A stretch of DNA of 40,176 nt from NCBI GenBank assembly GCA_964586965.1, contig CAZPJU010000001.1, positions 1 to 40,176 of the forward strand, in the 5' to 3' direction. The notes under the pieces were generated by a model that was given only the letters and a program-made list of their open reading frames with translations, had not been told where the DNA came from and did not search any database. Positions 1,843-26,548 of the stretch are shown here, one piece after another. The DNA is from an uncultured Lachnospiraceae bacterium (GTDB lineage Bacteria > Bacillota > Clostridia > Oscillospirales > CAG-272). Positions within the stretch are counted from its first letter, which is position 1. Each line of letters starts with the position of its first letter. The translations under genes were made by a program, and so were the position numbers.

Positions 1843-3330
1843 TCAGATTACGATGACACGTCGCGGCGAACCGTTTTCACTTGTGTTTTTAGGGGATGCA
1901 ACTTTCGCGACGGGGACGCGGAATCGCTTTGCGATGTCCCACACGCGCTCGCCCGACGCAGGGTAACAGACGCGGATACAGTGCTGAGATGGTTCAACGC
2001 TGTCGTCGGTGCTTAATGCTTCAAGTATAGGCAAACGTTTGGGCGCTGTTGCGGATACAGAAATGAACAGTTCCGCGGAGACGGACAGCTCGCCGTCTGC
2101 TCTGCCTGAAACGGACAAAACCGATACGTCTGCAATGTAGTCCGGTGTCTCGCAGTCCGTGCCTTTTACGGAAACGGGGAAATCGCAGGTCCAAGGAACG
2201 CTGTACGGCACATTTTCTCGTTCTCCGTCCGCGTTTATGAGGGCGGTGCCTGTTAGTGAACCTGCCAGACGAAGTTTTTCTCCGTCTGCTTCGATGCGTG
2301 CGCTTTCGACGACGGCGGAACCTGTCAAAAGCTCGGCTCGACCTGTGCGCGAAACGGCAGTTCGTTCGTTTACCGATATCGGAGTGGATGCCGCCGTTAT
2401 TACGGTTGAATAGCAAAGCTCTCCGTATTCTGCATTTGACGGCGCCGCCGTGCTGAATGCGTCGAGCACGACTTTGCCGGAAGATGAGAAAAGCACCTCG
2501 GCAAAGAGTTCGTAGGTCACGTCTGCGGTGTCGGCTCCGTCTCCGTTTCGGATTGTGACGGAAGAAACGCTTCCGAAACCTCGGCAACAGGCGGCAAGGT
2601 CGAAACTTAAATCATCGGGGAGATCCAGCGAGACTGTCTCGTCGAACGGAATAGAGATCGCTTCGGTTCGAATGGCATCGTTTTCGACGAAAAAGCAGGT
2701 CAAAAGAATTTCTCCCGTTAATCTGCATTCGGACGGAGAGGACGGGGCGCAGGTGTCAACGCGAACTCCTCCGCGACAATAAAGCGGCGTTTCGATACCA
2801 CGTAGTTCGGTGCTTGCGTAGAGATCGCGCGAAGCTCCCGAAACGGAGACGGCGGAGTTGATTTCTTCAGTCAGCGTTTCGACTTTGTCTGAGTCGCATC
2901 CCGACGGTACTGCTGCCGTGGTGACGGAGGCGGCTTCAATACGGCTCGAAAGACGAGCACGAAGCGAAAGCTTTCTCGGCGCCGTAACACGACAAAATAC
3001 GCTTTCTACCGTTGTGACGGCACGGCAATGCGGAGTGACTCCGGGAGAAAACGCTCCGAGAACTGCGGTGTTTTCGTAATCGCAACGAAATACGGCGCCG
3101 GTTGGTGAAGAGCTCTCTCCTCCTTGCCATACTACCTCAAAAGCGACTTCTCCACTTTGTTCCGCTGTTATTCCCGATGATCCCGATGGCTTGAGGTATA
3201 AGCCGTCTGAGGTTACGGAACATTCTGCGGACAGCAATTTTTCAACTTCGGGAAGATAGTCCGGGACGGTGAATTCCCCGACGCAATCGTGTGTGAGCCT
3301 TATGTCGCGTTCGATTTTTCTTGTTTTCAT
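1843..3330 (-). CDS. DUF3794 (SPOCS)-repeat protein with C-terminal LysM-like domain; SipL/SpoVID-like spore morphogenetic protein candidate
   Basis: The start MKTRKIERD at 3330 is preceded by AAGAGG. The N-terminus has the DUF3794-type motif (EFTVPDYLPEVEKLL). The C-terminus GERVWDIAKRFRVPVAKV resembles LysM. Size and architecture resemble C. difficile SipL. Confidence 0.55.
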   Translation of the reverse strand: MKTRKIERDIRLTHDCVGEFTVPDYLPEVEKLLSAECSVTSDGLYLKPSGSSGITAEQSGEVAFEVVWQGGESSSPTGAVFRCDYENTAVLGAFSPGVTPHCRAVTTVESVFCRVTAPRKLSLRARLSSRIEAASVTTAAVPSGCDSDKVETLTEEINSAVSVSGASRDLYASTELRGIETPLYCRGGVRVDTCAPSSPSECRLTGEILLTCFFVENDAIRTEAISIPFDETVSLDLPDDLSFDLAACCRGFGSVSSVTIRNGDGADTADVTYELFAEVLFSSSGKVVLDAFSTAAPSNAEYGELCYSTVITAASTPISVNERTAVSRTGRAELLTGSAVVESARIEADGEKLRLAGSLTGTALINADGERENVPYSVPWTCDFPVSVKGTDCETPDYIADVSVLSVSGRADGELSVSAELFISVSATAPKRLPILEALSTDDSVEPSQHCIRVCYPASGERVWDIAKRFRVPVAKVASPKNTSENGSPRRVIVI

Positions 3331-3498
3331 TTTTTGAACCTCTTTTCGGTCAAGGTGTTTTTGCTTTATGTTTACGCTTTTGAACTGATAAATATGACAA
3401 ACGAACATTTTTTCGCGAAATTTGCGAAAAACGCTTTCAATTTACGACGGATGTGATACAATAATGTTGCAGAAATGAAAATTTGAACGGAGAACGTT

Positions 3499-3834
3499 AT
3501 GAAAGTTGCCGTTGTCGGATCGAGAACTATAATGAGAATAAAGCTTGAGGACTATCTTCCGGCGGAAACAGAGGAGATCGTCTCCGGCGGCGCGAGGGGT
3601 GTTGATACCTGTGCCGCAATTTATGCGCGCGCCAATGGTATCCCGCTCAAGGAGTTTTTGCCGGAGTATGATCTTTACGGGAAGGCAGCGCCGCTTGTCA
3701 GAAACGACCTTATTGTAGAATATGCGGATATGGTGCTTGCATTTTGGGACGGTAGCTCGACGGGAACTCGGTATGTGGTTCGCAGGTGCCGTCAGCTTGA
3801 AAAGCCTGTAAAAGTGTTTAAGATCATCGAGTGA
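3499..3834 (+). CDS. Stand-alone SLOG-fold protein (DUF2493-like)
   Basis: MKVAVVGSR...VSGGARGVDTCAAIYARANGIPLKEF...YGKAAPLVRNDLIVEYADMVLAFWDGSSTGTRYVV follows the DUF2493/SLOG pattern (GGAxGxD ... RN ... WDGxSxGT). An RBS (GGAG) lies upstream. Confidence 0.7.
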   Translation: MKVAVVGSRTIMRIKLEDYLPAETEEIVSGGARGVDTCAAIYARANGIPLKEFLPEYDLYGKAAPLVRNDLIVEYADMVLAFWDGSSTGTRYVVRRCRQLEKPVKVFKIIE

Positions 3835-4316
3835 TCGCTTGAATCGGAGATGTGAACAAAAACACAAAATCATACATAAAATTACATAAAAGTCTGCGAA
3901 GATACAAATTTATATAACCTCTGTAAGCAATTTTGAAAAATTTGTGCAAAACGCGCAGACGTAAAAAAATTCAGTTCGATTTTGTGCACGACGACGGAAA
4001 TGTGAATTTTTTTTGAATTTTGCAAAACGAAAATAATGATAGATGCTGTTTTAATCGTTGGTAATTTTTATTTACCCTGCTTGTGGATTCGTACTTCAAA
4101 TACTACAAAATGTGTTGAAAATGAGTGCTTGGGCACTATATTGTGGGCAACGTACCGAGCAGAGGTAACTTAAATTTACCAAGCTGACACAAAAAACGCA
4201 TCGATGAAAAACGCTTCTCAAACGTTTGTTTATTTATAATATAGTTGAAGCAAAACGAACCGTTTTTGCGCCCGTCACGCTTCGTTCATTTGGATATCAC
4301 ATCGTTTTATGAATGC

Positions 4317-4345
4317 TTGACAGATTTTTTTGCGTATGATAATAT
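4317..4345 (+). promoter_or_regulatory. Near-consensus sigmaA promoter for the transporter operon
   Basis: TTGACA (4317-4322), a 17-nt spacer, and TAATAT (4340-4345) with an extended -10 TG at 4337-4338. It lies about 200 nt upstream of the first CDS. Confidence 0.55.
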
Positions 4346-4550
4346 ATTGTTATGAAAATTTGACGTAGTTTGCCGTGGTGTCGGAAGCGGCGGCGAGGTC
4401 AACGATTAAACGGTGTTTCGCCCACCGATAAATAAGGCGCTTTTTTAGACGCCGAAAGGCGAAAACAGCGATTGTCCCCCATGGCTTACGGCTTTCGTGA
4501 GCTGAAGCCGCAAGTCGGGATGACGCCAAACCAAGGTAGGAGGAAGTTCT

Positions 4551-7500
4551 ATGAACAGAACAAAGCTTCAAAAGCTCATGGCTCTTTTTCTTGCTGTTCT
4601 GACCATTGCGGGTACATTTGCCGTGCCTGTTATGGCTGCGGATGCGGGAACTGAGACAGACAAAAACGAAGGCACGTCCTCTCGTAAGGATCTTGCGGAG
4701 ATCAGTGCGGCGCTCAATGCGATTTCGTATCTCGAATACTGCAACGAGCATAAAGACGCAGTGCGTGCTAACAAAGAAGTCACCATTGACGCTTCGGTTT
4801 ATAATAAGGAAATGACCGATGCGGCAGTTGAGGTGTACAAGGATTATGAAGGAATGGAAGGCGATTCGCTCTTTATTCCCGACTCCGGTAAAGTTACATG
4901 GGATGTTAAAGTCCCCGAAACCGGAAAATATGCGATCGAGGTCGTTTATTATCCTATCAGTAATAAAGCGAACTCTATCGAGCGTATGTTCTACATCAAC
5001 GACGAAGTTCCCTTCGCTGAAGCAAGATATCTTGCTATGACGAAGATCTGGAGAAACGACTACAAGAAGGACGAAAACGGCAATGACGTTTTCCTCAGCG
5101 ATATCAACGGTAACGATATCCGTCCCGAAACGTACGAAGATCCCGATTGGGTAACGACAACCTTTATCGACAGTAACGGATATTATTCCGATCCTTTCGA
5201 GTTCTTCTTTGAAGAAGGCGAAAACACTATCGCACTCGAAGCTGTAAGAGAACCCGTTGTGATTAAGTCTATCAGACTTTATCCTTACGAAGATCTTCCC
5301 ACCTATGAAGAAGTAAAGGCACAGTATGCCGCAAACGGCTACAAGGAAGCAACGGCGGATCCCATAAAGGTCAATGCCGAATTCACAAGCGCTACTTCTC
5401 ATCAGACGATCTACCCTATTTACGACAGAACCTCATCTATCACTGATCCTCAGGACCCGGTGCTCGTTAAGTTGAACACGATCGGTTCCGATAAGTGGCA
5501 GCAGGTCGGTCAGTGGATCGAATACGATATCGAAGTCCCAGCGGACGGTCTTTATACGATCGCGGCAAGATTCAAACAGTCTGAGCTTTCCGGTCTGTAT
5601 GTTTCGAGACGTCTCTATATCGACGGAGAAATTCCGTTTGAAGAATGTAACTATTTGCAGTTTGCATATTCGAACTCTTGGCAGTCCAAGAGATTCGGTG
5701 AAAACGAAGAAGGCGACGAGCCTTATCAGTTCTACCTTACAAAGGGTAAGCACACAATCCGACTTGAAGTAACTCTCGGTGAACTCGGAACGATCGTTCG
5801 CGACGTAAGCGATACACTTGAGGTTATCAACGATGCTTATCTTTCTATATTAAAGCTCACAGGAACAAACCCCGACTCTTACCGTGACTACGGTTTCTCG
5901 CGTGTAATCCCCGGCACGATCAAGAATCTTGTTCTTGAGTCCAGAAATCTTGAAACCATCATCAATCAGCTCGAATCAATGAACGGCGTTGCCGGCGAAA
6001 ACACCGCGACACTTTCCGAAGTTCAGAGACTTGTCGAAAAGATGGCTTCCGATGAGGACGAAATCGCTCCGAACCTTACAACGCTTAAATCTAACGTCGG
6101 TACTCTCGGTACTTGGGTAAATACAGTTACCAAGCAGCCGCTTGAGATCGACTACCTCTCCGTACAGCCCATTTCCGCAGAACTTCCTAAGGCTGAGGCT
6201 AATTTCTTCCAGGCAATCTGGTTTGAAATTCGTTCCTTCATCGGAAGCTTCTACACGGACTATAACTCGCTCGGCTCCACTGTTGAAGTTGACGAAACAA
6301 ACTCCGTTGACGTTTGGGTCGTAACCGGACGTGACCAGGCGCAGATCATCCGTAACCTTATAGATAATAACTTCACTCCTCAGAGCGGCGTAGCTGTTAA
6401 CCTCAAGCTCGTTGCCGGCGGAACACTTCTTCCTTCCGTCCTCGCAGGTGTTGGTCCCGACGTTTCGCTCTTTACCGGCGACGGTGACGTTATTAACTAC
6501 GCGATCCGCGGTGCGCTTCAGGGACTTAATGATAAACTCTGCAAGAACTGCAAGTCTAAGGGTAAGGAAACACTTAAATATGTTGACGGCGGCGATTATC
6601 ACTGCGACGAATGCGGCGCAGACGGCGCTGACAACTGGGAAATCTTCTTCGATACCTTCGAGGAGGTAACTTCGAGATTCTCCGCAGCGGCTACTATCCC
6701 GCTTACGCTTTACGGCGAAACATTCGCGATCCCCGAAACTCAGACATTCCCGATGCTCTTCTACCGCAAGGACATCCTCGCTGACCTCGGACTCGAAGTT
6801 CCCAAGACATGGGACGACGTACTTGCGATGATTCCCGTGCTTCAGTACAATAACATGGAAATCGGTCTCACCGCCGACTACCTCACATACCTCTACCAGA
6901 TGGGCGGCGATCTTTACGCCGACAACGGTATGAGAGTTAACCTCGATAATAACCTCTCCCTTGAGGCTTTCGAGATGATGTGTAATATGTTCACGATGTA
7001 TTCGCTGCCGTACTCATACGACTTCGCGAACCGCTTCAGAACAGGTGAAATTCCGATAGCTATTTCAAACTATACGTCTTATAACCAGCTCGTTGTATTC
7101 GCAACTGAAATCGCAGGTCTCTGGGAATTCACAACAATCCCCGGTATGCTCCAGGAAGACGGTTCGATCAATAATACGGCAGTTTCCGGCGTTGCCGGCG
7201 TCGTTATCATGGAAGGCAGTAAGCATAAGGAAAATGCTTGGGACTTCATTGATTGGTATACCGACTCCGAATTCCAGGCTGCGTACAGTAACGAACTCGT
7301 TGCAGTCCTCGGTGAAGCAGGTATGAACCCGACGGCTAACATCGAAGCCCTTGAAGAACTTTCATGGACATCCGACGAATATAAAGAACTCCGTGCACAG
7401 TTCGATGCTCTTACAGCAGTGCCGAACTACCCCGGTTCTTATATTATCAGCCGTTACACAGACTTCGCATTCAAGGATGCGTACAACAATAAAGCTAACC

Positions 7501-7856
7501 CGACAGAATCACTTCTCGGTTACATTAATATAATAAACAAGGAATTCTCCCGTAAGCGCGAAGAATTTAACCTCGAAACGCTTAACCTCGGTGAAAACCT
7601 TGCCGAAAAGAGAATCCGTCAGGCAAGAGAACTTATCGACGACTTCAAGGACGCCGATAAGGAAAAATATGCAAAGCAGATACTTGAGCTTAATTCCGCG
7701 ATAGATACCGCGCTCGTCGGTACTTCCGGTGTTGCCGAGTTTGATGCTCTCGCAGCAGTAGCAACCTCACTCAGAAATACGGATGCGGCGCTCTTCGGAG
7801 ACGTTGCAGACTTCATTGATGACGCTGTTGCCGCTCTCAACTCTTACCTCTATTGA
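4551..7856 (+). CDS. Giant secreted ABC solute-binding protein (CUT1-type SBP domain) fused to two N-terminal CBM-like beta-sandwich repeats
   Basis: A strong RBS (GGTAGGAGGAAG) precedes the start. The signal peptide has an AxA site (VMA/AD) and no lipobox Cys. There are two paralogous repeats (GKYAIEVVYYP...YINDEVPF and GLYTIAARFK...YIDGEIPF). The C-terminal half has SBP family-1-like sequence (FAIPETQTFPMLFYRKDILADLGLEVPKTWDD). Confidence 0.8.
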   Translation: MNRTKLQKLMALFLAVLTIAGTFAVPVMAADAGTETDKNEGTSSRKDLAEISAALNAISYLEYCNEHKDAVRANKEVTIDASVYNKEMTDAAVEVYKDYEGMEGDSLFIPDSGKVTWDVKVPETGKYAIEVVYYPISNKANSIERMFYINDEVPFAEARYLAMTKIWRNDYKKDENGNDVFLSDINGNDIRPETYEDPDWVTTTFIDSNGYYSDPFEFFFEEGENTIALEAVREPVVIKSIRLYPYEDLPTYEEVKAQYAANGYKEATADPIKVNAEFTSATSHQTIYPIYDRTSSITDPQDPVLVKLNTIGSDKWQQVGQWIEYDIEVPADGLYTIAARFKQSELSGLYVSRRLYIDGEIPFEECNYLQFAYSNSWQSKRFGENEEGDEPYQFYLTKGKHTIRLEVTLGELGTIVRDVSDTLEVINDAYLSILKLTGTNPDSYRDYGFSRVIPGTIKNLVLESRNLETIINQLESMNGVAGENTATLSEVQRLVEKMASDEDEIAPNLTTLKSNVGTLGTWVNTVTKQPLEIDYLSVQPISAELPKAEANFFQAIWFEIRSFIGSFYTDYNSLGSTVEVDETNSVDVWVVTGRDQAQIIRNLIDNNFTPQSGVAVNLKLVAGGTLLPSVLAGVGPDVSLFTGDGDVINYAIRGALQGLNDKLCKNCKSKGKETLKYVDGGDYHCDECGADGADNWEIFFDTFEEVTSRFSAAATIPLTLYGETFAIPETQTFPMLFYRKDILADLGLEVPKTWDDVLAMIPVLQYNNMEIGLTADYLTYLYQMGGDLYADNGMRVNLDNNLSLEAFEMMCNMFTMYSLPYSYDFANRFRTGEIPIAISNYTSYNQLVVFATEIAGLWEFTTIPGMLQEDGSINNTAVSGVAGVVIMEGSKHKENAWDFIDWYTDSEFQAAYSNELVAVLGEAGMNPTANIEALEELSWTSDEYKELRAQFDALTAVPNYPGSYIISRYTDFAFKDAYNNKANPTESLLGYINIINKEFSRKREEFNLETLNLGENLAEKRIRQARELIDDFKDADKEKYAKQILELNSAIDTALVGTSGVAEFDALAAVATSLRNTDAALFGDVADFIDDAVAALNSYLY

Positions 7857-7908
7857 TAAGAGCCGAATTTCTGTTAAAGTTAAGAAATCTATATAAGGAG
7901 AAACGCTC

Positions 7909-8871
7909 ATGTCAAATAAAAATGAAGCTGCTGCCGTTCAGGAACAGCGCGCGGTATCGCGTAAGGATATGACAAGAGCTCAGTGGACATGGCACGAGAT
8001 GAAGAATAACAAAACGGCGTACCTCATGGTTGCTCCGTTTATGATATTGTTCTTCGTGTTCACGGTTATTCCGGTTGTGCTCTCCATCTTCCTGAGCTTG
8101 ACATCGTTTAATATGCTTCAGATGCCGAAGTTCATTTTCCTTGATAACTATATCCGACTTTTCCTTGACGACGATATTTTTATCACGGCTATAAAGAACA
8201 CTCTCATCTTTGCAGTGGTAACAGGACCTACGTCCTACTTCCTCTCTCTGTTCATCGCGTGGTTCATTAACGAGCTTCCGCCTAAGATCAGAGCTCTCGT
8301 AACCCTCGTATTCTACGCTCCCTCCATCGGTGGTAACGTATATCTTATTTGGGGTACGCTTTTCTCAAGCGACGCATACGGTTGGGTAAACGGTTGGCTC
8401 CTCAACTGGGGTATAATCGACCAGCCCGTGCTTTGGTTCTACGATGCGACATACTGTATGCCTCTGTGTATAGTCGTCGCACTGTGGACTTCACTCGGTA
8501 CATCTTTCCTTTCGTTCATTGCAGGTCTTCAGGGCGTCGATAAGTCTCTTTACGAGGCGGGCGCTGTTGACGGTATCAAAAACCGTTGGCAGGAACTTTG
8601 GTATGTAACCCTTCCTTCAATGAAACCGCAGCTTATGTTCGGTGCGGTCATGGCTATTACAGGTTCGTTCGGCTTCGGCGGTATCGTTACCGCCCTCGCC
8701 GGCTTCCCTTCGGTAGATTACTGCTGCTGGACAATCACTCATCACCTCGATGACTACGGCGGAACACGTTGGGAAACAGGTTATGCTTCCGCAATCGCTG
8801 TTTTGCTTTTCGCAATGATGGTCGGAGCTAATATGCTCGTCCAGAAACTTCTCTCAAAGGTAGGACAATAA
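7909..8871 (+). CDS. Carbohydrate ABC transporter permease (MalF/LplB-like), pair 1
   Basis: It has six predicted TM segments and an EAA loop (LYEAGAVDGIKNRWQELWYVTLPSMKP). An AAGGAG RBS precedes the start. Confidence 0.9.
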   Translation: MSNKNEAAAVQEQRAVSRKDMTRAQWTWHEMKNNKTAYLMVAPFMILFFVFTVIPVVLSIFLSLTSFNMLQMPKFIFLDNYIRLFLDDDIFITAIKNTLIFAVVTGPTSYFLSLFIAWFINELPPKIRALVTLVFYAPSIGGNVYLIWGTLFSSDAYGWVNGWLLNWGIIDQPVLWFYDATYCMPLCIVVALWTSLGTSFLSFIAGLQGVDKSLYEAGAVDGIKNRWQELWYVTLPSMKPQLMFGAVMAITGSFGFGGIVTALAGFPSVDYCCWTITHHLDDYGGTRWETGYASAIAVLLFAMMVGANMLVQKLLSKVGQ

Positions 8872-8872
8872 A

Positions 8873-9748
8873 ATGGCAAGAAAATTAAGAACAAGAAACC
8901 ATAAAGTTGTCCTCAACCGTTCGGTGGGAGGCGACCTCGGAATCACAGTATTCCTTACAATTATGGGCGTGTTTATGTTTCTTCCCATGCTCTATGTCAT
9001 CCTTCAGGCGCTCAAGCCGCTTGACGAGCTTTGGATGTTCCCGCCCCGCTTCTATGTTATCTCTCCTACGCTCAAGAACTTCACAGACCTCTTCTCTTTG
9101 ATGTCTGACTCTTGGGTTCCGTTCTCGAGATACATATTCAACACAGTTTTCATTTCGATCGTAGGTACATTCGGTAACCTTCTGTTCGCTTCGCTCGCAG
9201 CTTACTCGCTCGCAAAGTTGAAGTACCCCGGACGTGACTTCCTCTTTAACCTCGTTGTTAAATCGCTTATGTTTACGTCCACCGTTACCGGTATCGCAAC
9301 CTTTATCACGATGTCACTCCTCGGATGGGTTGATACTTACCTTGCGGTTATCGTCCCCGCGTTCGCAACAACGCTCGGTCTTTACCTTATGAAGCAGTTC
9401 ATGGAGACAAACGTATCCGATGCGGTTCTCGAAAGTGCACGTCTTGACGGTGCATCCGAGTTCTACGCATTTTGGGTAATCGCAATGCCGATGGTTAAGC
9501 CCGCTTGGCTTACGCTGATCATTTACTCTTTCCAGGGTCTCTGGAATTCGGGTTCTTCCATCTACATTTACTCCGAACAGCTTAAAACTCTTAACTATGC
9601 AATTTCGCAGATCACCGCCGGCGGTATCGCCCGTGCAGGTGCGGCTGCGGCTTCTACCGTCATCATGATGATGGTACCGATTATCGTTTTCGTTATTTCC
9701 CAGAGTAACATCATCGAAACGATGGGCTCGAGCGGAATGAAGGACTAA
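8873..9748 (+). CDS. Carbohydrate ABC transporter permease (MalG/LplC-like), pair 1
   Basis: It has an EAA loop (LESARLDGASEFYAFWVIAMPMVKP). The start lies 1 nt after the upstream stop. Confidence 0.9.
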   Translation: MARKLRTRNHKVVLNRSVGGDLGITVFLTIMGVFMFLPMLYVILQALKPLDELWMFPPRFYVISPTLKNFTDLFSLMSDSWVPFSRYIFNTVFISIVGTFGNLLFASLAAYSLAKLKYPGRDFLFNLVVKSLMFTSTVTGIATFITMSLLGWVDTYLAVIVPAFATTLGLYLMKQFMETNVSDAVLESARLDGASEFYAFWVIAMPMVKPAWLTLIIYSFQGLWNSGSSIYIYSEQLKTLNYAISQITAGGIARAGAAAASTVIMMMVPIIVFVISQSNIIETMGSSGMKD

Positions 9749-9763
9749 GGAGGAAAGCCCAAT

Positions 9764-11890
9764 ATGAAAAGAAAACTTTTTTCCTTGCTTCTGATTGTGA
9801 TAACGGCGGTTATGCTTGCTACAACGGCAAGCGCGGCAGCATATACGACTTACACCTATTCCTACGAAGGATTTGCGCTTAAATCTCCCGATGCGTATGT
9901 GCCGGACAGAATCGTAGATTCCGATTATATCGGTCTTACAGTTCCGATCGACGAACCGAGAGATCTTGAAGTCGATGACGAAGGCAATGTCTATATCGTA
10001 GACGCAAAGAATCAGCGTGTCATCGTAACAGACCGTTACTACAAGCTGAAGTTCGAAATCTCCTCCTTCCTTAATGAGCACGGCGTGTGGGACAGCTTCG
10101 CAGATCCCTCCGGCGTTGCTATTACGGAAGATTACATCTACGTCTGCGACACGAACAATAACCGTATCGTTATGTTCGACCGCGACGGCAACTATGTAAA
10201 GATCGTACCGAAACCCGTTTCTGCGTATTTCGTAGAAGGCTCTCTCTATAAGCCGGTAGCGGTCGCAGTAGATAAGTACGGCAGACTTTTCGTTGTTTCT
10301 TCAACAACCTATCAGGGTATCATCGTTATGGACGATGATGCGAATTTCTCCGGATTTATCGGCGCACAGAAGGTTTCTATCGGTGTTTGGGAAAGAATTT
10401 GGCGTGAAATTCAGACGGAAGAACAGAGAGAATCATCTGAAGAATATATTTCGTCCGAATTTAATAACATCACAATTGATGACGACGGATTTATCTATGT
10501 AACAACGTCCTCCATCGACGAAGATGTACAGCAGAGCGCGATCAATTCGCGTTCCACAGACGGTGACTATGCTCCCGTTAAAAAGCTTAACTCCACCGGT
10601 TATGACGTTATGGGTCGTAACGGCTTCTGGCCTCCGTCCGGTGAAGTAAAAGTCTCCAATTCGTCCACTTCTTCTATCTCCGGCGCGTCTAAGATCATTG
10701 ACGTTGCGGTAGGTCCGGAAGGAACATGGTCTATCATCGACGAAAAGAGAAGCAAAACATATACGTACGATAAATACGGTAACCTCCTCTTTATCTTCGG
10801 TGACACAGGCGAACAGCTTGGTAATATTTATAATATCGAAGCTATCTCTTACAGCGGCGACGATATCATCCTTCTTGATAAATCGAAGGACAGTTTTACC
10901 GTTTATAAGAGAACAGCATACGGCGATCTCCTTATAGAGGCGCTCAGCCATCAGAACAACAGAATTTATGACGTTGCAGTCGATGACTGGACATCTATCC
11001 TCCAGCGTAACAGTAACTTTGATACCGCTTATATCGGTATCGGTGATGCAATGTACCGCGAAGCTGATTACGAAACCTCTATGGAGTATTACAAGTACGC
11101 GTACAACACTGAAGGTTATTCCGATTCTTTCCGCGAAGTTCGTAAAGAATGGGTCGCTAAGTGGATTTGGACTATCCCGATAATAGTTGTCGTTATTTGC
11201 GTTGCTCTTTCCAAGTTCTTCAAGTACGCGGATAAGGTAAATAAGGCAACGGCACTTAAAGTCGGTAAGAAAAGCTTTAAGGAAGAACTCCTTTACGGCT
11301 TCCATCTTATCTTCCATCCGTTTGACGGATTCTGGGACCTCAAGCATGAGCAGAGAGGTTCGGTTCGTGCGGGTATCGTTTATATAATCGTAACGATCGT
11401 CGCATTCTTCTATCAGTCCGTAGGTACAGGCTATATCTTTAACCCCACCGGAAACTTTATGAACATTTTCGCGCAGATCGCGTCCGTTGCTGTTCCGCTT
11501 ATCCTTTGGGTAGTAGCTAACTGGTGCCTTACAACGCTGTTCGACGGCGAAGGATCCTTTAAGGATATCTTTATCGCAACTACGTACAGCTTGCTCCCTC
11601 TCCCGATGCTCGTAATCCCGTCCGTAATTTTCTCCAATATCCTTGCTGAAAACGAAGGACAGCTTATTACGCTTCTCGTAGGCATCGCATGGGCATGGGC
11701 AGGTATGCTTATATTCTTCGGAATGATGGTTACACATGACTATTCCCTTCTCAAAAATGTCACAACGACTCTCGGTACTATCGTGGCAATGGCGTTTATC
11801 ATCTTCGTCGCAGTCCTCTTTACGAGCCTTGTTGCAAGAATGGTAAGCTTCATATCAAGTATCATAGTCGAGTTGACATATCGTACATAA
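9764..11890 (+). CDS. Secreted NHL-repeat beta-propeller fused to a C-terminal Yip1-type polytopic membrane domain
   Basis: There is a signal peptide ending ASAAAY. NHL-like blades include YIVDAKNQRVIVTD, IYVCDTNNNRIVMFDRDG and LFVVSSTTYQGIIVMD. From about aa 466 there are five or more TM helices with Yip1-like spacing. Confidence 0.7.
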   Translation: MKRKLFSLLLIVITAVMLATTASAAAYTTYTYSYEGFALKSPDAYVPDRIVDSDYIGLTVPIDEPRDLEVDDEGNVYIVDAKNQRVIVTDRYYKLKFEISSFLNEHGVWDSFADPSGVAITEDYIYVCDTNNNRIVMFDRDGNYVKIVPKPVSAYFVEGSLYKPVAVAVDKYGRLFVVSSTTYQGIIVMDDDANFSGFIGAQKVSIGVWERIWREIQTEEQRESSEEYISSEFNNITIDDDGFIYVTTSSIDEDVQQSAINSRSTDGDYAPVKKLNSTGYDVMGRNGFWPPSGEVKVSNSSTSSISGASKIIDVAVGPEGTWSIIDEKRSKTYTYDKYGNLLFIFGDTGEQLGNIYNIEAISYSGDDIILLDKSKDSFTVYKRTAYGDLLIEALSHQNNRIYDVAVDDWTSILQRNSNFDTAYIGIGDAMYREADYETSMEYYKYAYNTEGYSDSFREVRKEWVAKWIWTIPIIVVVICVALSKFFKYADKVNKATALKVGKKSFKEELLYGFHLIFHPFDGFWDLKHEQRGSVRAGIVYIIVTIVAFFYQSVGTGYIFNPTGNFMNIFAQIASVAVPLILWVVANWCLTTLFDGEGSFKDIFIATTYSLLPLPMLVIPSVIFSNILAENEGQLITLLVGIAWAWAGMLIFFGMMVTHDYSLLKNVTTTLGTIVAMAFIIFVAVLFTSLVARMVSFISSIIVELTYRT

Positions 11891-11913
11891 ACGGTTAGGA
11901 GGAAAATAAAAAT

Positions 11914-14900
11914 ATGAGAAAATCTATTAGATTAATATCAGCGCTCTTGACCGTTCTTATGGTTGTTACTTCCGTAGGCATAGGTTCGTTGCTTACGGCA
12001 AGCGCTGCAACCCCGGCGTATGAATATCTTACGACGGGAATGGAATCGCAGCTTGCAAAGCTCGAAACGATGACTCTTATGAAGTCTCAGGACGGCTATA
12101 ACCTCTACTGCGATACCTATACCGGTGAAGTTGCGTTCCAGAAGATCGCAACCGGTCAGATTCTTTTCTCGAACCCCTATGATTCGGGTTCCTCTACCGC
12201 CGCTAACGCAGATACTATCAAGGCTAAGCTCCTTTCTCAGCTGTTTGTTGAGTATGAGGACAGCGACGGTACAGTAAAAGAAATGTATAGCTATACAGAA
12301 GCATCCGAAAGAGATCAGATCATCGTAAAAAATATCAAAAACGGTATCCGTGTTGAATATACGATGGGTCGTCAGGAAGCAAGACGTCTCGTACCGAGAA
12401 TGATCCAGAAGGAACGTCTTGAAACCCTTATTCTCGATAAGATCGATAACGAATATTCTCATGACAGACTTGCAAACTTCTACGTTTTGATGGACCCGAA
12501 CGACGAAACCAAGTCCGAGCGTGCAATCGCGGAGATGAAGGCTAAGTACCCTATCACAAACAGAATGGCAGTTTATGTTTATGACTCTAAGTCATCTGAC
12601 TATGAGCTTAACTGGTGTGAATCCGTTATCAAGGCTTACTGTCCCGACTATACTTACGAAACTCTCGATGAAGACCATGCGTTGACAGAGTATGAAGGCA
12701 GCGATTCCGCACCGCCGCTCTTCCGTCTCGCACTTGAGTACACGATCGATTCTGAAGGACTTACCGCTCGCCTTGCAGCAAACGGTATCCGTTATGATGA
12801 CACCGCATACTCTCTGCTCAGCGTAACAGTTCTTCCTTATATGGGCGCTATCAGCTCCGAAAACGAAGGTTATACCTTCATGCCCGACGGCGCAGGCGCT
12901 CTGTTCACCGCTTCCGATCTTGCAGGCATAACATGGAACCGTACCGGTCAGATGTACGGCCCCGACTATGCTTACCAGGAGATCACAGGTGAGCATCAGG
13001 AAGTTTTGACAGTTCCCGTTTGGGGCGCCGTTCAGACTCTTGATTATACCAAGACAATTACTCACGAAAATGTTGTTGAAGAAGGCTACACAACAACAGA
13101 TGAGGAAACAGGCGAAACGATTGAAGTTGATCCTGTTATCGAAACAACAACCGAAAAGGTTGACGTTCACGAAAATAAGGGATACGTTGCAATCATCACC
13201 GAAGGTGACTCTCTTGCAACCATCAAGTATGAAAACGGCGGTACGCTCCATAAGTACGCAGCTATCTACGCGTCCTTCTGCCCGCGTCCTTCCGATGAAT
13301 ACAACCTTTCCGAATCAATTTCGGCAGCTTCCAACACAACATGGCGTGTTGAATCCTCCAGAAAATACGTAGACAGCTACCGTATCAAGTACATTATGCT
13401 CGATGATGAGCAGATGGCGGAGGAAGCAAACCTTGAGGATTATTATGCACCTAATTACTTCGGTATGGCTAAGGCTTACCGTGAGTATCTTGAAGGTCAG
13501 GGTGTCCTCACAAGAATCACATCTTCCGACGTAACCGAAAACATCCCGCTTTATATCGAAGTTCTCGGTACAATGGAAACAACAGAAAAGATTCTTTCTA
13601 TTCCCGTAACAGTCGATACTCCGCTTACGACTTTCGAAAACATCCAGACGATGTATGAGGAGCTTGTTGCGGCAGGTATTGATAATGTTAACTTCAAACT
13701 CACAGGCTTTGCAAACGGCGGTCTCTCCAAGTCTACTGTTCCGTATAAGCTTAAGTGGGAAAAGGCGGTCGGCGGATCTGATGGATTTGAGGCACTCGTT
13801 GCTTACGCGGCAGACAAAAACCTCGGTATCTTCCCCGACTTCGACTTCTGCTACGCTGCTCATAATAAAGCATTTGATGGCTTTACTTACAGAAAGCACG
13901 CAGTTAAAACGATCGACGACCGTTACACATCAAAGCGTTATTATAACGCTATGACACAGTCGTATTCGAGAAACTTCGAAATCGCGATTTCCCCGTCTGT
14001 GTTTACACACTTCTATGAGAAGTTCAATGAGAACTATCAGAAGTATAATCCCACGGGAATCTCTGTTTCGACTCTCGGTACAGACCTTAACTCCGACTTC
14101 GACGAGGACGATCCTTACAACCGCGAGGACAGCAAACGCTTTACAATCGAACTTCTTGATCAGATTTCCAAGGACTATGATCAGGTAATGGTTGACGGCG
14201 GTAATGCTTATTCCTTCAAGTATATTGATCATATCGTCAATATGAACCTCAATTCCAGTGAATTCTTCAATGCTTCTTATTCCGTTCCGTTTACGGGACT
14301 CGTGCTTCATGGCTACGTTCAGGGCGCAGGTACTCCCGCTAACGAGGAAGGCGACATTGAAAACGCTATTTTGAAGTCCATCGAAACAGGTACTTACCTC
14401 TACTTCACACTTGCTTATCAGAATACTTCCGATCTTAAGGAAGATGAAAACCTCAACTCTTATTATTCGATCAGATACGATATCTGGTTTGACGATATGG
14501 TTGAATACTATACATACCTTAACGGTGTCCTCAAGGATCTCCAGACTCAGCTTATCGTTGGTCACGAGTTCCTCGCAGGCGAACGTGTACCGGATGCTGA
14601 CGAGCTTGAAGCAGACAGACTGAAGGCTGAAGAAGAAGCTGCTGCTAAGGAAGAAGCTGATCGAATCCAGCAGGAAAAGGACGAAGCTGCAGCAGCACTC
14701 GCCGCACGTAAGGAAGCGGAAGCTCTTGAAGCGGAAAAGCTTACAGCTCTTGAAGACTCCGCAAAACTTATAGATACGATCAATAAGCTCCTTGCAGAAG
14801 TTGATGCAAAGAAAGTTGCGTTTAAGGATCTCGTAGCAAGCATTCCCGAACTTGAAGCGGCTATTCCCGCTGCCGAAAAGGCTCTTGAAGATGCAAATGC

Positions 14901-15570
14901 AGCTCTTGAAACTGCTACTAAGGCTAACGATGATGCTCAGGCAGCTCTTAAAGCCGGCGATTCTTCCGATGAGGACGCTTATGCGGCTCTCAAGGAAGCG
15001 GCTTCCGAAGCAAAGTCTGCTCTTGAAGACGCAACAAAGGCTGTTGAAACTGCAACAAAGGACGTTGAAACAGCTGAAAAGGCTGTAACAACAGCTCTTG
15101 AATCCATCAGAACATATAAGACCGTTATGCATGAGCTTAAGGCTGAAATCGAAGAAACAGTCGCTCTCGCAGAGCGTAAGGTAGAGATCACCGAAGGCGC
15201 AATCGCAGAAATCGTTACGAATAAGGATAAGGTATCCGCAATCGCAGCTACCGCAATCGCTAATATCGAGCCCTTCTACGCTGATTATGACGCGGCAATC
15301 GCTCTTTATGAACTCACTCCCGTTGAGGATGAGACAAAGGACGATGAAACCGACGGCGATACTGATGCCGACCCCGATCATAAGCCCGGCGCCGATGTTG
15401 AACCCGAAGAAGCAGTTGTTTCCAAGTATGCGATAGATGACGGTTCTATCGTTCACGTAACTTATGAAAACGGTACACACTTCATCCTCAACTACAACCG
15501 TTTCTCGGTAACTGTTGAATATGAAGGCACAACCTATACTATCGAAGCATTCTCGGTAGTGAAATTTTAA
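11914..15570 (+). CDS. 1218-aa secreted protein, DUF5696-like (possible TIM-barrel glycan-active domain) with coiled-coil insertion
   Basis: There is an AGGAGG RBS and a signal peptide ending LTASAATP. The central region (IPLYIEVLGT...FKLTGFANGGL...LGIFPDFDFCYA) resembles DUF5696-type proteins as I recall them. Residues ~aa 893-1130 are A/E/K-rich heptads, followed by an acidic linker and a small beta-rich C-terminal domain. Confidence 0.55.
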   Translation: MRKSIRLISALLTVLMVVTSVGIGSLLTASAATPAYEYLTTGMESQLAKLETMTLMKSQDGYNLYCDTYTGEVAFQKIATGQILFSNPYDSGSSTAANADTIKAKLLSQLFVEYEDSDGTVKEMYSYTEASERDQIIVKNIKNGIRVEYTMGRQEARRLVPRMIQKERLETLILDKIDNEYSHDRLANFYVLMDPNDETKSERAIAEMKAKYPITNRMAVYVYDSKSSDYELNWCESVIKAYCPDYTYETLDEDHALTEYEGSDSAPPLFRLALEYTIDSEGLTARLAANGIRYDDTAYSLLSVTVLPYMGAISSENEGYTFMPDGAGALFTASDLAGITWNRTGQMYGPDYAYQEITGEHQEVLTVPVWGAVQTLDYTKTITHENVVEEGYTTTDEETGETIEVDPVIETTTEKVDVHENKGYVAIITEGDSLATIKYENGGTLHKYAAIYASFCPRPSDEYNLSESISAASNTTWRVESSRKYVDSYRIKYIMLDDEQMAEEANLEDYYAPNYFGMAKAYREYLEGQGVLTRITSSDVTENIPLYIEVLGTMETTEKILSIPVTVDTPLTTFENIQTMYEELVAAGIDNVNFKLTGFANGGLSKSTVPYKLKWEKAVGGSDGFEALVAYAADKNLGIFPDFDFCYAAHNKAFDGFTYRKHAVKTIDDRYTSKRYYNAMTQSYSRNFEIAISPSVFTHFYEKFNENYQKYNPTGISVSTLGTDLNSDFDEDDPYNREDSKRFTIELLDQISKDYDQVMVDGGNAYSFKYIDHIVNMNLNSSEFFNASYSVPFTGLVLHGYVQGAGTPANEEGDIENAILKSIETGTYLYFTLAYQNTSDLKEDENLNSYYSIRYDIWFDDMVEYYTYLNGVLKDLQTQLIVGHEFLAGERVPDADELEADRLKAEEEAAAKEEADRIQQEKDEAAAALAARKEAEALEAEKLTALEDSAKLIDTINKLLAEVDAKKVAFKDLVASIPELEAAIPAAEKALEDANAALETATKANDDAQAALKAGDSSDEDAYAALKEAASEAKSALEDATKAVETATKDVETAEKAVTTALESIRTYKTVMHELKAEIEETVALAERKVEITEGAIAEIVTNKDKVSAIAATAIANIEPFYADYDAAIALYELTPVEDETKDDETDGDTDADPDHKPGADVEPEEAVVSKYAIDDGSIVHVTYENGTHFILNYNRFSVTVEYEGTTYTIEAFSVVKF

Positions 15571-15585
15571 GAGAGGAGTTTGACA

Positions 15586-16569
15586 ATGAAAACTGAAACA
15601 AAAAAGACTAAGATCAAAGTCGAGTCGGCTCCCAAAAAGCGTAAAATAGTGTCTTTGGACAAGAAAAAGGCTCGCGCGGGTTATTGGTTCGTGCTTCCCT
15701 TTATTATCGGTTTGCTTGTAATTTACATCCCGATGATATATCAGTCCATTAACTACAGCTTCCATGAAATGAATTCCGTCAGAGGCGGCGGGTACGAACT
15801 TGTACCCGTCGGCTTCGACAACTACACCGAGGCGCTTCTCGTTGATACTTCATTCGTGCAGCAGCTTACTACGGGTATCAGACAGATCATCTTCGATATC
15901 CCCGCAATCGTAATCTTCTCGCTGTTTATGGCGATCCTCCTGAACCAGGATATGGCGGGACGCGGATTCTTCCGTGCTATCTTCTTTATCCCTGTTATCA
16001 TCAGTACAGGTCTTATGAGCGATATCGACTCTGCTAACATACTTCAGGAAAGTATGGGAAGTGCCGGTTCTCAGATTGATACAGGTACAGGACAGAGTAC
16101 CGTTTCGCAGATCGTAAATGTTATGGACGTTGAGCGACTTTTTGAAAACATGAAGGTCGGTTCCGGTCTCGTTGAGTACGTAGTCGGTCTCGTAAATGAT
16201 ATTTTCGATATCGTAAACCGTTCCGGTGTACAGATGCTTATCTTCCTTGCCGGTCTTCAGTCTATCTCACCTGCGATTTATGAGTCGTGTCAGATAGACG
16301 GTGCGACAGCATGGGAAACATTCTGGAAGATCACCTTCCCGATGATCAGCCCGATGATCCTTGTTAATGCGATATATACAGTTATTGACGCACTTACACG
16401 TTCGGATAATAACGTAATGTCGTATATCAGCACGGTATATAACGGCGCAAACGGTACAACGCTTGCTTCCGCAATGTCATGGATGTACTTCCTCTTGGTA
16501 ATGCTCCTGATCGCGGCAGTATCCGGCGTCATTTCAGCATACGTCTTCTATCAGAAGCGTGACGCATAA
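15586..16569 (+). CDS. Carbohydrate ABC transporter permease (MalF-like), pair 2
   Basis: It has an EAA loop (IYESCQIDGATAWETFWKITFPMISP). ATG at 15586 lies 7 nt after GAGAGGAG. The tracked TTG at 15580 is less likely. Confidence 0.9.
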   Translation: MKTETKKTKIKVESAPKKRKIVSLDKKKARAGYWFVLPFIIGLLVIYIPMIYQSINYSFHEMNSVRGGGYELVPVGFDNYTEALLVDTSFVQQLTTGIRQIIFDIPAIVIFSLFMAILLNQDMAGRGFFRAIFFIPVIISTGLMSDIDSANILQESMGSAGSQIDTGTGQSTVSQIVNVMDVERLFENMKVGSGLVEYVVGLVNDIFDIVNRSGVQMLIFLAGLQSISPAIYESCQIDGATAWETFWKITFPMISPMILVNAIYTVIDALTRSDNNVMSYISTVYNGANGTTLASAMSWMYFLLVMLLIAAVSGVISAYVFYQKRDA

Positions 16570-16583
16570 GGAGGTGCACATAA

Positions 16584-17645
16584 ATGGATGCTAATAACGT
16601 AAAAAGTGCTCCCGTAGTCACTAAGAATACCAAAAATAAAATTAAGGTAGACTATGAAGGAAAGGTTTCCCCTTGGGAGAGATTTAAGCTTAAAGTCTTC
16701 TCAATGTACTTCCTTAAAAATGTTGTAGTTTATATTTGCAGACTTATCCTGCTCATCGGTATTTCCTACATCATTATCTTCCCGTTTATCTCAAAACTCG
16801 CTTCGTCTATCATGTGCCGTGAGGACTTCGTTGACGCAACGGTTCTTCTGATTTCAAAGAATCCTACGCTCGACACATATAAGGCGATCATAGTCGATAA
16901 CGAATATTTCAAAGCAATGCTCAATACCGCGATTTTGTCGGGTTCGACAGCGCTGATACAGACATTCATTACCTGCTGTATCGCTTACGGTTTTGCGAAG
17001 TTTAACTTCAAGGGCAATAAAGTTTTGTTCCTTTTCGTAATCCTTACGATGATCGTTCCTCATTCAACACTCCGACTTGCAATGTTTATGAAGTTCCGTT
17101 ATTTTGATATCTTCGGAATATTTAATTTGCTCGGCGGTGGTCAGTTCGAGTGGCTTGAGATACTGCCCTTTACAGAGATCCAGCTTACAAATACATACTG
17201 GCCATTCATCATTCTCTCCCTTACGGGTCTTGCGTTTAAGAACGGACTTTACATCTTTATGCTTCGTCAGTTCTTCCGCGGCGTACCGGATGAGCTTGAA
17301 GAATCTGCGTACATCGACGGAGCGGGAACTTTCAGAACTTTCGTTCAGATCATTCTTCCGCTTTCCATCCCGATGCTCGTAACAGTATTTATGTTCGCTT
17401 TCTCATGGCAGTGGACTGATAACTACTATGTTAACGTATTCTTTACGACAACAGGACCGTACACGCTGCGCGACATCATCAAGGTTCCCTCATCTCTCGA
17501 TGTAGAGTACGCGGGACAGAATATGTATACCGCAGCTATCAGAAATACCGCAGGTATCTTGATTCTCCTTCCCCTTGTTCTTATTTACTCCTTTGCTCAG
17601 AAGTATCTTGTACAGGGTATCGAGCGTTCCGGTATCGTCGGCTAA
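16584..17645 (+). CDS. Carbohydrate ABC transporter permease (MalG-like, extended N-terminus), pair 2
   Basis: It has an EAA loop (LEESAYIDGAGTFRTFVQIILPLSIP) and an AAGGAGG RBS. Confidence 0.85.
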   Translation: MDANNVKSAPVVTKNTKNKIKVDYEGKVSPWERFKLKVFSMYFLKNVVVYICRLILLIGISYIIIFPFISKLASSIMCREDFVDATVLLISKNPTLDTYKAIIVDNEYFKAMLNTAILSGSTALIQTFITCCIAYGFAKFNFKGNKVLFLFVILTMIVPHSTLRLAMFMKFRYFDIFGIFNLLGGGQFEWLEILPFTEIQLTNTYWPFIILSLTGLAFKNGLYIFMLRQFFRGVPDELEESAYIDGAGTFRTFVQIILPLSIPMLVTVFMFAFSWQWTDNYYVNVFFTTTGPYTLRDIIKVPSSLDVEYAGQNMYTAAIRNTAGILILLPLVLIYSFAQKYLVQGIERSGIVG

Positions 17646-17671
17646 TCCGATAAAAACGATAAAACAAAAGA

Positions 17672-17705
17672 AAATCCCCGTTTGCATCAGCAAACGGGGA
17701 TTTTT
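17672..17705. terminator. Bidirectional intrinsic terminator (end of transporter operon / end of GH3 gene)
   Basis: The stem is AAATCCCCGTTTGC, loop ATCA, GCAAACGGGGATTT. It is flanked by A-rich sequence upstream and T-rich sequence downstream. Confidence 0.8.
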
Positions 17706-24108: not shown

Positions 24109-24175
24109 GCTTATCCTTTTTGCGAAAAATCATAAAAACTATTTATTCTATCTAATCCCTGAAAGGACAAACACA

Positions 24176-25600: not shown

Positions 25601-25624
25601 TAAGCTCAAATAATATCCGCTTTG

Positions 25625-25652
25625 CGCGGGAAAACGGAGCCGTTTTCCCGCG
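25625..25652 (+). promoter_or_regulatory. Strong intercistronic hairpin between major pilin and sortase genes (no U-tract)
   Basis: A perfect 12-bp stem CGCGGGAAAACG / CGTTTTCCCGCG with loop GAGC. It is followed by TACAGCGG rather than a T-run. Confidence 0.6.
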
Positions 25653-25675
25653 TACAGCGGTAAGGAGAATCCCGT

Positions 25676-26548
25676 ATGAAGAAAAAGCAGAACAATTTTA
25701 TAACGTTTTGCATGGTTTTGTTGCTTTTTGCGGGCTTGTCCTTGCTGCTGTATCCGACTGTGAGTAATTATTGGAACTCGAAACATTCCACTCAGGCGAT
25801 ATCCGGTTATGCCGAGCAGGTAGCCGGTTTGGATGAGAAAGAATACGAAGAACTATGGCAGTCGGCGGTGACATATAATAGGTCGCTTTTGGCGCGAGGT
25901 AATTCTTATTTGCTTTCCGAGACTCAAAAAGCGGAATACAGACAACTTTTGGACGTTTCGGGACTCGGCGTTATAGGTTACATTGAAATCCCCGTAATTG
26001 ATGTCAGCCTTCCGATATACCGCGGAACGGATGAATCTGTTTTGCAGGTTGCGGTCGGACATTTGGAGTGGTCGAGCTTGCCTGTCGGCGGCAAAAGCAC
26101 GCATTGCGTGCTTTCCGGTCACAGAGGACTTCCGAGCGCAAAGCTTTTTACGAATTTGGATAAGCTTGTCACGGGAGATGTATTTGTTTTGCGTGTGCTT
26201 GATGAGGTCTTGACATACGAGGTCGATAAGATTTCAATCGTTGAACCCGATGAAACCGAACTGCTTGAGATCGTCGACGGTATGGATTACTGTACGCTTG
26301 TGACTTGTACTCCATACGGTATAAATACTCAGCGCTTGCTTGTTCGCGGACATAGGATCGAAAACGCAGATGATGCTAAGACTGTTCGCGTAACGGCGGA
26401 GGCAATACAGATCGAGCCGTTGCTCGTAGCGCCTGTTGTGGCAACGCCTATCCTGCTTTTCCTTTTGATTATTTTGCTTTTACCGAAGAAAAAGAAACCG
26501 GCAAACAGAGGTGATTATGATGAGGACGAATGTAATAAAACGCTTTAG
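25676..26548 (+). CDS. srtC: Class C (pilin-polymerising) sortase
   Basis: It has N- and C-terminal TM segments and catalytic motifs VLSGHRG (His), TLVTCTPYG (Cys) and LLVRGHRI (Arg). An AAGGAG RBS precedes the start. Confidence 0.9.
   Translation: MKKKQNNFITFCMVLLLFAGLSLLLYPTVSNYWNSKHSTQAISGYAEQVAGLDEKEYEELWQSAVTYNRSLLARGNSYLLSETQKAEYRQLLDVSGLGVIGYIEIPVIDVSLPIYRGTDESVLQVAVGHLEWSSLPVGGKSTHCVLSGHRGLPSAKLFTNLDKLVTGDVFVLRVLDEVLTYEVDKISIVEPDETELLEIVDGMDYCTLVTCTPYGINTQRLLVRGHRIENADDAKTVRVTAEAIQIEPLLVAPVVATPILLFLLIILLLPKKKKPANRGDYDEDECNKTL

Follow-up and report, generated by a model that had tools for sequence, protein, structure and literature searches.

A 40,176-nucleotide stretch of DNA from an uncultured Lachnospiraceae bacterium (GTDB order Oscillospirales; assembly GCA_964586965.1, contig CAZPJU010000001.1, positions 1 to 40,176; hereafter the window) carries an operon whose composition raises the question of what its products do together. 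Seven genes on the + strand (g1 to g7, 4551-17645, with intergenic gaps of 1-52 nt) encode an oversized extracytoplasmic binding protein (g1), two pairs of ATP-binding cassette (ABC) permeases (g2-g3 and g6-g7) and, between the pairs, a membrane protein with NHL and Yip1 domains (g4) and a large DUF5696 protein (g5). A first-pass annotation, made from the sequence alone, had placed seven same-strand genes between one promoter and one terminator; the same open reading frames (ORFs) were recovered, and Pfam and NCBIfam searches of the proteins agree with the composition it gave (a 1101-aa solute-binding protein, two permease pairs, NHL-Yip1 and DUF5696). Our reading, in which we infer the substrate, the enzyme activity of g5 and the role of the NHL-Yip1 protein, is that the operon is probably a module for the capture, trimming and import of plant hemicellulose, a variant of the polysaccharide-utilisation loci (PULs) of Gram-positive bacteria.

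The seven genes form one conserved unit across Clostridia and Bacilli. Three metagenomic contigs (DUF5696 proteins 51-63% identical) have the same seven genes, with the same sizes and in the same order. The window's clade was surveyed with g5 as query and one genome per species, which returned at least 581 species, and the best 80 loci were inspected: in these roughly 80 Oscillospirales loci, every sufficiently long one has g1-g7 in order on one strand. Conservation is highest in the permeases (mostly 60-86% identity, with g3 the best-conserved module protein at mostly 70-86%) and lowest in the two large extracytoplasmic proteins (mostly 40-55%). Among annotated plasmids, a protein search turned up this gene order in Butyrivibrio fibrisolvens D1 (DUF5696 26% identical) and in Paenibacillus cellulosilyticus (21% identical), the latter layout being common to 13 further Paenibacillaceae (14 in total). 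At the distance of B. fibrisolvens and these 14 Paenibacillaceae (20-45% identity), each window protein best matches its positional counterpart. A wider survey, with the g2 permease as query and again one genome per species, returned at least 589 species; 70 of its best 80 loci, from Lachnospiraceae and Bacilli, hold the full module in the same order, the remaining 10 are interrupted by contig ends, and the nearest 80 relatives of g2 in species genomes (the best 80 of at least 589) all lie inside the module. Among about 170 loci there is one circular permutation (L109), in which g4-g5-g6-g7 stand ahead of g1-g2-g3. Locus searches with a single query found no locus for the Butyrivibrio protein and one only for P0378. 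Since the order is kept, but for this permutation, in all long-enough loci surveyed, the module is old and strictly collinear and occurs in both Clostridia and Bacilli, and the recurrence of the same seven genes in the same order in long-enough related loci shows that the arrangement is not due to chance. The statement in the first-pass annotation that such a combination recurs in Firmicutes is borne out by gene neighbourhood. Three module contigs are filed under bins of Methanocorpusculum (L028), Candidatus Udaeobacter (L135) and Akkermansia muciniphila (L174); these are probably binning contaminants from Firmicutes.

The largest product, g5 (11914-15570, + strand; 1218 aa), matches DUF5696 (PF18952, E 5e-136) and was analyzed by Pfam, an AlphaFold2 (AF2) model, Foldseek and profile searches. 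The AF2 model covers aa 33-900 only (predicted local distance difference test, pLDDT, 82; predicted template modelling score, pTM, 0.80). In Foldseek, the top match of the model was the 3,6-anhydro-D-galactosidase of Zobellia, which is like glycoside hydrolase (GH) family 129 (ZgGH129, E 2e-24), and the second was the GH129 α-N-acetylgalactosaminidase NagBb (E 1e-18), followed by GH101, GH36 and GH31; the matches to ZgGH129 and NagBb span the whole chain, with template modelling (TM) scores of 0.64-0.68 on target length and about 10% identity. These four GH families are retaining α-glycosidases or transglycosidases. As predicted, g5 consists of an N-terminal signal or anchor (aa 1-32), a GH129-like β-sandwich (aa ~33-530), a (β/α)8 barrel (aa ~545-880), a coiled-coil insertion (aa ~893-1160) and, at the C-terminus, a conserved β segment (aa ~1165-1218) that lies outside the model, and it has the three-domain fold of GH129/GH101-type retaining α-glycosidases. 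The coiled coil, about 260 aa rich in Ala, Glu and Lys, sits between the last barrel helix and the C-terminal β segment; it is missing from distant homologues. A single-sequence search of the Protein Data Bank (PDB) with g5 gave only spurious WD40 and helical matches. Profiles reached NagBb at E 0.089 when built from 50 sequences and at E 2.6e-6 when built from nine sequences across three clades, the latter over about 130 residues that begin where the N-domain ends and reach barrel strand 2, so that the sequence similarity to GH129 appears weak but real. NagBb-like fragments in the protein collection have precomputed matches to the Pfam models of both GH101 and DUF5696, and a 141-aa NagBb fragment used as query recovered short fragments only, with no GH129 mapping of catalytic residues. 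The family itself is large: the DUF5696 search returned 4019 clusters (50% identity) at E up to 1e-3 and 1518 at E up to 1e-30, with protein lengths from 763 to 2545 aa. To call the 1218-aa protein one of unknown function, as had been done at first, was therefore too strong, DUF5696 being a distant relative of GH129; the accompanying suggestion that this protein processes the glycan is plausible because structure prediction and Foldseek point to a glycoside-hydrolase fold.

Conserved residues are consistent with an active site. Across 138 aligned sequences from three clades, at 20-30% identity, D351, D728, E824, R737, N810, H884 and W858 are essentially invariant; of these, D351 belongs to the N-domain, and D728 follows directly on barrel strand 4. 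The GH129-like enzyme DagB requires one Asp of the N-domain (D202) and, in the barrel, an Asp (D486) and a Glu (E517) (PMC5698469). By analogy, D351, D728 and E824 of g5 parallel this set. The catalytic Asp nucleophile of GH129 is D435 in NagBb and D486 in DagB; as the catalytic regions are not directly alignable, we infer that D728 is the likely nucleophile of g5, with D351 and E824 as the other conserved carboxylates.

The binding protein g1 (4551-7856, + strand; 1101 aa) was dissected by Pfam, an AF2 model (pLDDT 83) and Foldseek. A signal peptide (aa 1-29) and a flexible tether are followed by two β-sandwiches resembling those of carbohydrate-binding module (CBM) families 6 and 35 (aa 77-244 and 272-408), which are a tandem repeat (E 1e-7), a four-helix bundle (aa 412-527), a two-lobed CUT1-type solute-binding domain (aa 532-1000) and a helical C-terminal domain (aa 1017-1098). 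The Pfam matches to SBP_bac_1 and SBP_bac_8 are restricted to aa 626-914 (SBP_bac_1, E 4.6e-18), PDB sequence matches were to MalE-type proteins, and Foldseek returned oligosaccharide-binding proteins at E 1e-18 to 1e-15 (TM about 0.75 at E 3e-18), among them receptors for cycloisomalto-, sophoro-, malto- and cycloalternan oligosaccharides and the bifidobacterial GltA. On this model, g1 is an oligosaccharide-binding protein of CUT1 type that carries two CBM6/35-like β-sandwiches in addition, an architecture that agrees with the glycan-capture part of the original hypothesis. Many g1 orthologues have a lipobox (L-x-G-C), of which the window protein lacks the Cys. Within the binding domain, aa 669-689 (window 6555-6617) form a zinc ribbon-like CxxC-x17-CxxC insertion (CKNC...CDEC), which occurs in 9 of 58 aligned g1 orthologues, the others having at this place either nothing or an acidic stretch of about 23 aa.

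Four membrane proteins make up the translocation part. The first pair consists of the MalF/UgpA-like g2 (7909-8871, 320 aa, six hydrophobic segments) and the MalG/UgpE-like g3 (8873-9748, 291 aa), and the second of the MalF-like g6 (15580-16569, 329 aa from a TTG start) and the MalG-like g7 (16584-17645, 353 aa), all on the + strand. BPD_transp_1 was matched by g3, g6 and g7 (g7, E 2e-17); for g2 it stayed below the Pfam cut-off (22.4 vs 26.4 bits), and the UgpA and PotB models matched. Motifs of the type EAA-x2-DG-x9-(I/L)P, which mark the ATPase-coupling loop, are visible in all four sequences, which thus read as two complete MalF/MalG-type pairs, each with an ATPase-docking loop. For g6, the ATG at 15586 is better spaced from its GGAG than the TTG at 15580 and is probably the true start. 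The identity of g6 with g2 is below 32% and confined to short stretches, so that the pairs are not recent copies of each other, and a recent duplication was rejected. Domain and family searches found no ABC ATPase or regulator gene within the whole 40-kb window; the one candidate for a hidden ATPase, a 370-aa ORF at 39007-40119, proved to be QueA. The lack of both genes, noted at the first pass, is real for this window, and a missing ATPase is normal for this class of transporter, no oddity. In 13 of the 14 loci of the P. cellulosilyticus clade (Paenibacillaceae), a gene for an MsmX/UgpC-like ATPase (369-392 aa) lies directly upstream of the module. To our knowledge, BPD_transp_1 permeases with EAA loops occur only in binding-protein-dependent importers; given these loops, the MsmX-type ATPase of one clade and the association with mannan and xylan loci, import is strongly favoured over export.

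The fourth protein, g4 (9764-11890, + strand; 708 aa), has a signal peptide, a putative six-bladed NHL β-propeller (aa ~30-395), TPR-like helices (aa 400-460) and one transmembrane helix ahead of a five-helix Yip1 membrane domain (aa 514-683). These assignments come from Pfam (NHL, E 1.6e-10, with SGL also matched; Yip1, PF04893, E 3e-16, 60.2 bits vs a cut-off of 28.6, covering the whole model), from hydropathy (five hydrophobic segments in aa 536-691 plus one helix ahead) and from PDB sequence matches to the propellers of TRIM71, Thin, Brat and PknD in multiple stretches (E down to 3.5e-15) and to TPR proteins. In B. fibrisolvens, NHL and YIP1 are annotated as two separate genes. That g4 may be a membrane scaffold or receptor is a guess, made by analogy from its fixed position in the module and from the precedent of Bacillus YknW.

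Clues to the substrate come from the genes beside the module. Neighbours were counted within four ORFs of the module in 71 loci of a clade that includes Butyrivibrio, many Lachnospiraceae and Paenibacillus. A second binding protein of normal size lies directly before g1 or after g7 in 60 of the 71, which makes two transporters with two receptors probable; the two pairs are thus probably not two channels fed by one giant receptor. The earlier proposal of import through two channels therefore stands as to import and probably needs changing as to the receptor. Enzymes and binding modules recur in the same flanks (GH26 with CBM35 in 17 loci, GH10 in 14, a triple-CBM65 protein in 12 and GH43 in 11), as do regulators of AraC type (22 of 71) and LacI type (17 of 71; 39 together). 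Around the module in cultured relatives, these enzymes are GH26 mannanases, GH10 xylanases and members of GH43, which places it within loci for mannan and xylan utilisation. Recurrent layouts, with SBP2 for the second binding protein, are LacI-SBP2-module-GH26, GH43-module-SBP2-GH10, GH26-module-CBM65-SBP2 and AraC-SBP2-module-GH10; the first of these is that of Paenibacillus amylolyticus and P. illinoisensis, and the last also occurs in Paenibacillus. The DUF5696 subfamilies track locus type, and the Lachnospiraceae DUF5696 proteins of GH26 type are nearer to the Paenibacillus ones than to the Lachnospiraceae ones of xylan type. In these sister clades, transporter, glycan-degrading enzymes and regulator are encoded together, which is the full definition of a PUL; the window itself has a transporter and a protein with a GH fold, no regulator gene, and only a conserved palindrome pair upstream. 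In the Paenibacillaceae loci L088-L102, several LLM-class flavin monooxygenases and extra binding proteins stand downstream of the module (12-13 of 14 loci), with an NADPH-dependent oxidoreductase as well in L088, the one annotated locus; this downstream set looks like organosulfur utilisation.

Taken as a working mechanism, the module would carry out the ATP-driven uptake of a complex carbohydrate, most probably hemicellulose oligosaccharides of plant origin, with all extracytoplasmic parts tethered at the membrane. The β-sandwiches of g1 would catch the glycan, and the oligosaccharide would be passed to permease pair 1. As an active surface α-glycosidase or transglycosidase, g5 would remove an α-linked decoration or linkage from oligosaccharides freed by endo-enzymes, and its coiled-coil insertion could be a hairpin that extends as a stalk into the cell wall. 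Permease pair 2 would import a second product, the receptor in the window's clade being g1 or a binding protein encoded elsewhere, and a shared ATPase of MsmX/MsmK type, also encoded elsewhere, would drive both pairs. The NHL-Yip1 protein would be the membrane scaffold or receptor that holds enzyme and transporters together. A bolder version, which we put forward tentatively and think less than probable, is that the seven proteins form one membrane complex, in which NHL-Yip1 joins two ABC translocators, the tethered GH129-like enzyme and the CBM-bearing receptor; the binding and debranching of a decorated oligosaccharide and the import of two products from it would then all take place at the cell surface.

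Several observations weigh against the hemicellulose module. An alignment of the catalytic regions of g5 and GH129 was not obtained, the detectable similarity ending before strand 4 at about 10% identity, and the window's clade has Thr at position 720, at the end of strand 4, where Asp is common in the other two clades. The β-sandwiches of g1 gave only sub-threshold matches to CBM_35, CBM_6, Golvesin_C and GH115_C when the window protein and all nine homologues were scanned; the label 'CBM-fused' therefore keeps the two N-terminal β-sandwiches seen in the model, and its CBM6/CBM35 assignment stays below threshold. In the window's clade, the module loci have no second binding protein that could serve pair 2, housekeeping genes make up most of their flanks (cysteine desulfurase, NifU, ROK kinase, alanyl-tRNA synthetase, ATP synthase) and hemicellulases are rare beside them, so that the link to hemicellulose is borrowed from the sister clades.

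Some of these points would suit an importer in which g5 retains the GH129 fold as a non-catalytic glycan-binding or structural protein and the oligosaccharides come from other secreted enzymes. The absence of the Asp at position 720 in the window's clade (clade I), the lack of an assignable acid/base residue and the endo-enzymes already encoded in neighbouring loci fit such a protein; the active-site-like conservation of D351, D728, E824, R737, N810 and H884 in 138 divergent sequences does not, and we consider it unlikely. Slightly less likely again is that the window's clade uses the module for something other than hemicellulose, namely the recycling of its own envelope glycopolymer or the uptake of a host α-linked glycan such as mucin O-glycan. 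The stable housekeeping context, with most clade-I loci free of hemicellulases, would agree with this, as would the activity of the nearest enzyme relatives, GH129 and GH101, on mucin α-GalNAc, a coiled coil long enough to reach into the wall, and the origin of the carriers of this clade, all of them gut or digester organisms. Set against it are the clear ties of the sister clades to mannan and xylan loci and the xylosidase-like GH3 that adjoins the operon in the window's nearest relatives. That the system exports or assembles a surface polymer is very improbable: only its unusual accessory proteins and the ATPase missing from the window would suggest such a role, and against it stand four membrane proteins that all belong to the BPD_transp_1 type and have EAA loops, the constant presence of one or two binding proteins and a catabolic context of GHs and LacI or AraC regulators. 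That two ordinary sugar transporters and two unrelated genes have come to lie together by accident would account for the great divergence between the permease pairs and is hardly credible, with the order kept at 20-45% identity across two bacterial classes, a single permutation in some 170 loci and the nearest 80 relatives of g2 all within the module.

Comparison with known systems places the hemicellulose module among importers and PULs with several features of its own. It shares with CUT1 importers of the MalEFGK2, MsmEFGK and UgpABCE type the binding-protein fold, the MalF- and MalG-like permeases with EAA loops and an ATPase often encoded elsewhere (in Firmicutes, the shared MsmX/MsmK), an in-operon UgpC/MsmX-like ATPase being found in one Paenibacillaceae clade. 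Unlike these importers, it has two permease pairs per operon, a binding protein 2.5 times the normal size, to which two β-sandwiches, a helical bundle and a helical tail are added, and an NHL-Yip1 protein and a GH129-like enzyme that always stand between the permease pairs. The enzymes GH129 (NagBb of Bifidobacterium bifidum, DagB of Zobellia galactanivorans) and GH101 resemble g5 in having a β-sandwich, a (β/α)8 barrel and a small C-terminal β domain, and DagB further in one conserved carboxylate in the N-domain and two in the barrel, although the catalytic residues of g5 are not aligned to GH129. They differ in that g5 is about 10% identical to them, extracytoplasmic, membrane-tethered and, in the window's clade, interrupted by the 260-aa coiled coil, and in that the genomic partners of the module indicate plant hemicellulose rather than mucin or carrageenan.

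Gram-positive PULs follow the same logic of extracellular enzyme, binding protein, ABC permeases and cytoplasmic exo-enzymes under LacI/AraC control. Examples are the β-mannan locus of Roseburia intestinalis and the bifidobacterial galacto-N-biose/lacto-N-biose pathway, in which GH101 acts outside and a binding protein and ABC importer follow; GltA, the binding protein of that pathway, is among the structural matches of g1. We know of no Yip1 protein, NHL propeller, set of four permeases or DUF5696 protein in any of these PULs. For the Yip1 domain, there is Bacillus subtilis YknWXYZ, where a Yip1-family membrane protein works with an ABC transporter. It sets a precedent among bacteria for a Yip1-domain protein that serves as accessory ABC subunit, but YknXYZ is a MacB-type exporter with a membrane-fusion protein and has no binding protein, propeller or sugar link. 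The Bacteroidota Sus-type 'utilisome' is a functional analogue only: it too has surface glycan binding, surface enzyme and transporter encoded together, whereas its proteins are unrelated and its setting is the outer membrane.

A full-text literature search found nothing on DUF5696 and nothing relevant on Yip1 together with ABC-transporter, binding-protein or hemicellulase terms. The single families and the PUL logic are known, and the fixed set of four permeases, NHL-Yip1, GH129-like DUF5696 enzyme and oversized receptor appears to be undescribed. It is found in many hundreds of species (at least 581 and at least 589 in two independent scans), which include abundant uncultured Oscillospirales and Lachnospiraceae of the gut (ruminants, rabbits, poultry, humans) and cultured, genetically tractable Paenibacillus, so that the reading is directly testable. 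If the hemicellulose reading is true, it would give a function and a probable enzyme class to DUF5696, explain the role of a bacterial Yip1 protein, offer a metagenomic marker of loci for mannan and xylan utilisation and mean that the surface equipment of Gram-positive fibre degraders goes beyond 'secreted enzyme plus ABC importer' and includes a dedicated apparatus. If, further, all seven proteins do form one complex, this would be a Gram-positive counterpart of the Bacteroidota 'utilisome', and bacterial Yip1 domains would be organisers of ABC transporters.

The operon is framed by a conserved promoter and a strong terminator. A Shine-Dalgarno sequence precedes all seven starts. The near-consensus promoter at 4317-4345 (+ strand), noticed at the first pass, has the form of a sigma-70-type site (TTGACA, 17 nt, TAATAT, with an extending TG before the -10) that agrees with the consensus at 10 of 12 positions and is nearly invariant across five related genomes (L007-L011); by itself it is not unusual, because the region holds 35 promoter-like sites against 22.9 expected. 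Two perfect palindromes, GGTAA-N7-TTACC, lie upstream of it at 4060-4076 and 4164-4180 (+ strand). The copies are 104 nt apart, with no third match in the window and a chance expectation of 0.68 at one mismatch allowed, and both are kept in five related genomes, adjoining conserved CTACAAAATGTG and CTATATTGTGGG blocks; they are a probable operator pair for a regulator encoded elsewhere. The 5' leader (4346-4550, + strand; ~205 nt) has conserved predicted hairpins, and the final ~75 nt ahead of the ATG hardly vary among six genomes that differ by 10-17% in coding sequence. An Rfam scan of the window gave only a tRNA and no family match for the leader, and the consensus fold has only 2 compensatory pairs; as these compensatory changes are too few, the interpretation of the leader as a riboswitch was dropped. 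An ORF on the - strand at 3442-3873 (143 aa) was considered as a divergent regulator and rejected, its translation, rich in Arg, Cys and His, looking non-coding and matching no family; should the ORF not be real, about 1.1 kb of intergenic DNA would precede the operon.

At the other end, the terminator that had been taken to close the operon is the strongest stem of the region (17671-17704, 15 pairs), and the A-run and T-run that flank it make it a two-way intrinsic terminator usable by both convergent genes, the operon and the GH3. The product of this GH3 gene is Xyl3A-like and has no signal peptide, and is thus of cytoplasmic type; its presence beside the window's copy of the operon speaks in favour of a hemicellulose substrate. 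The first-pass annotation had cast it as the finishing enzyme of the system; it was found only in the two nearest relatives (L007 and L009), lies therefore outside the conserved unit, and was rejected as a member.

The remainder of the window is ordinary Firmicute chromosome, with a sortase-pilus locus and housekeeping genes. The sortase-dependent pilus locus (21400-28149) encodes LPXTG proteins with Cna-B, SpaA and pilin domains and two sortases, and a signal peptidase gene lies ahead of it. On the other side of the operon, a 521-aa protein encoded at 1843-3408 (- strand) has no Pfam match, a LysM-like C-terminus and an 'LPDYLPEV' motif that resembles those of spore-coat SPOCS domains. In 17 loci, a relative of this protein adjoins the module, with no fixed side or orientation.

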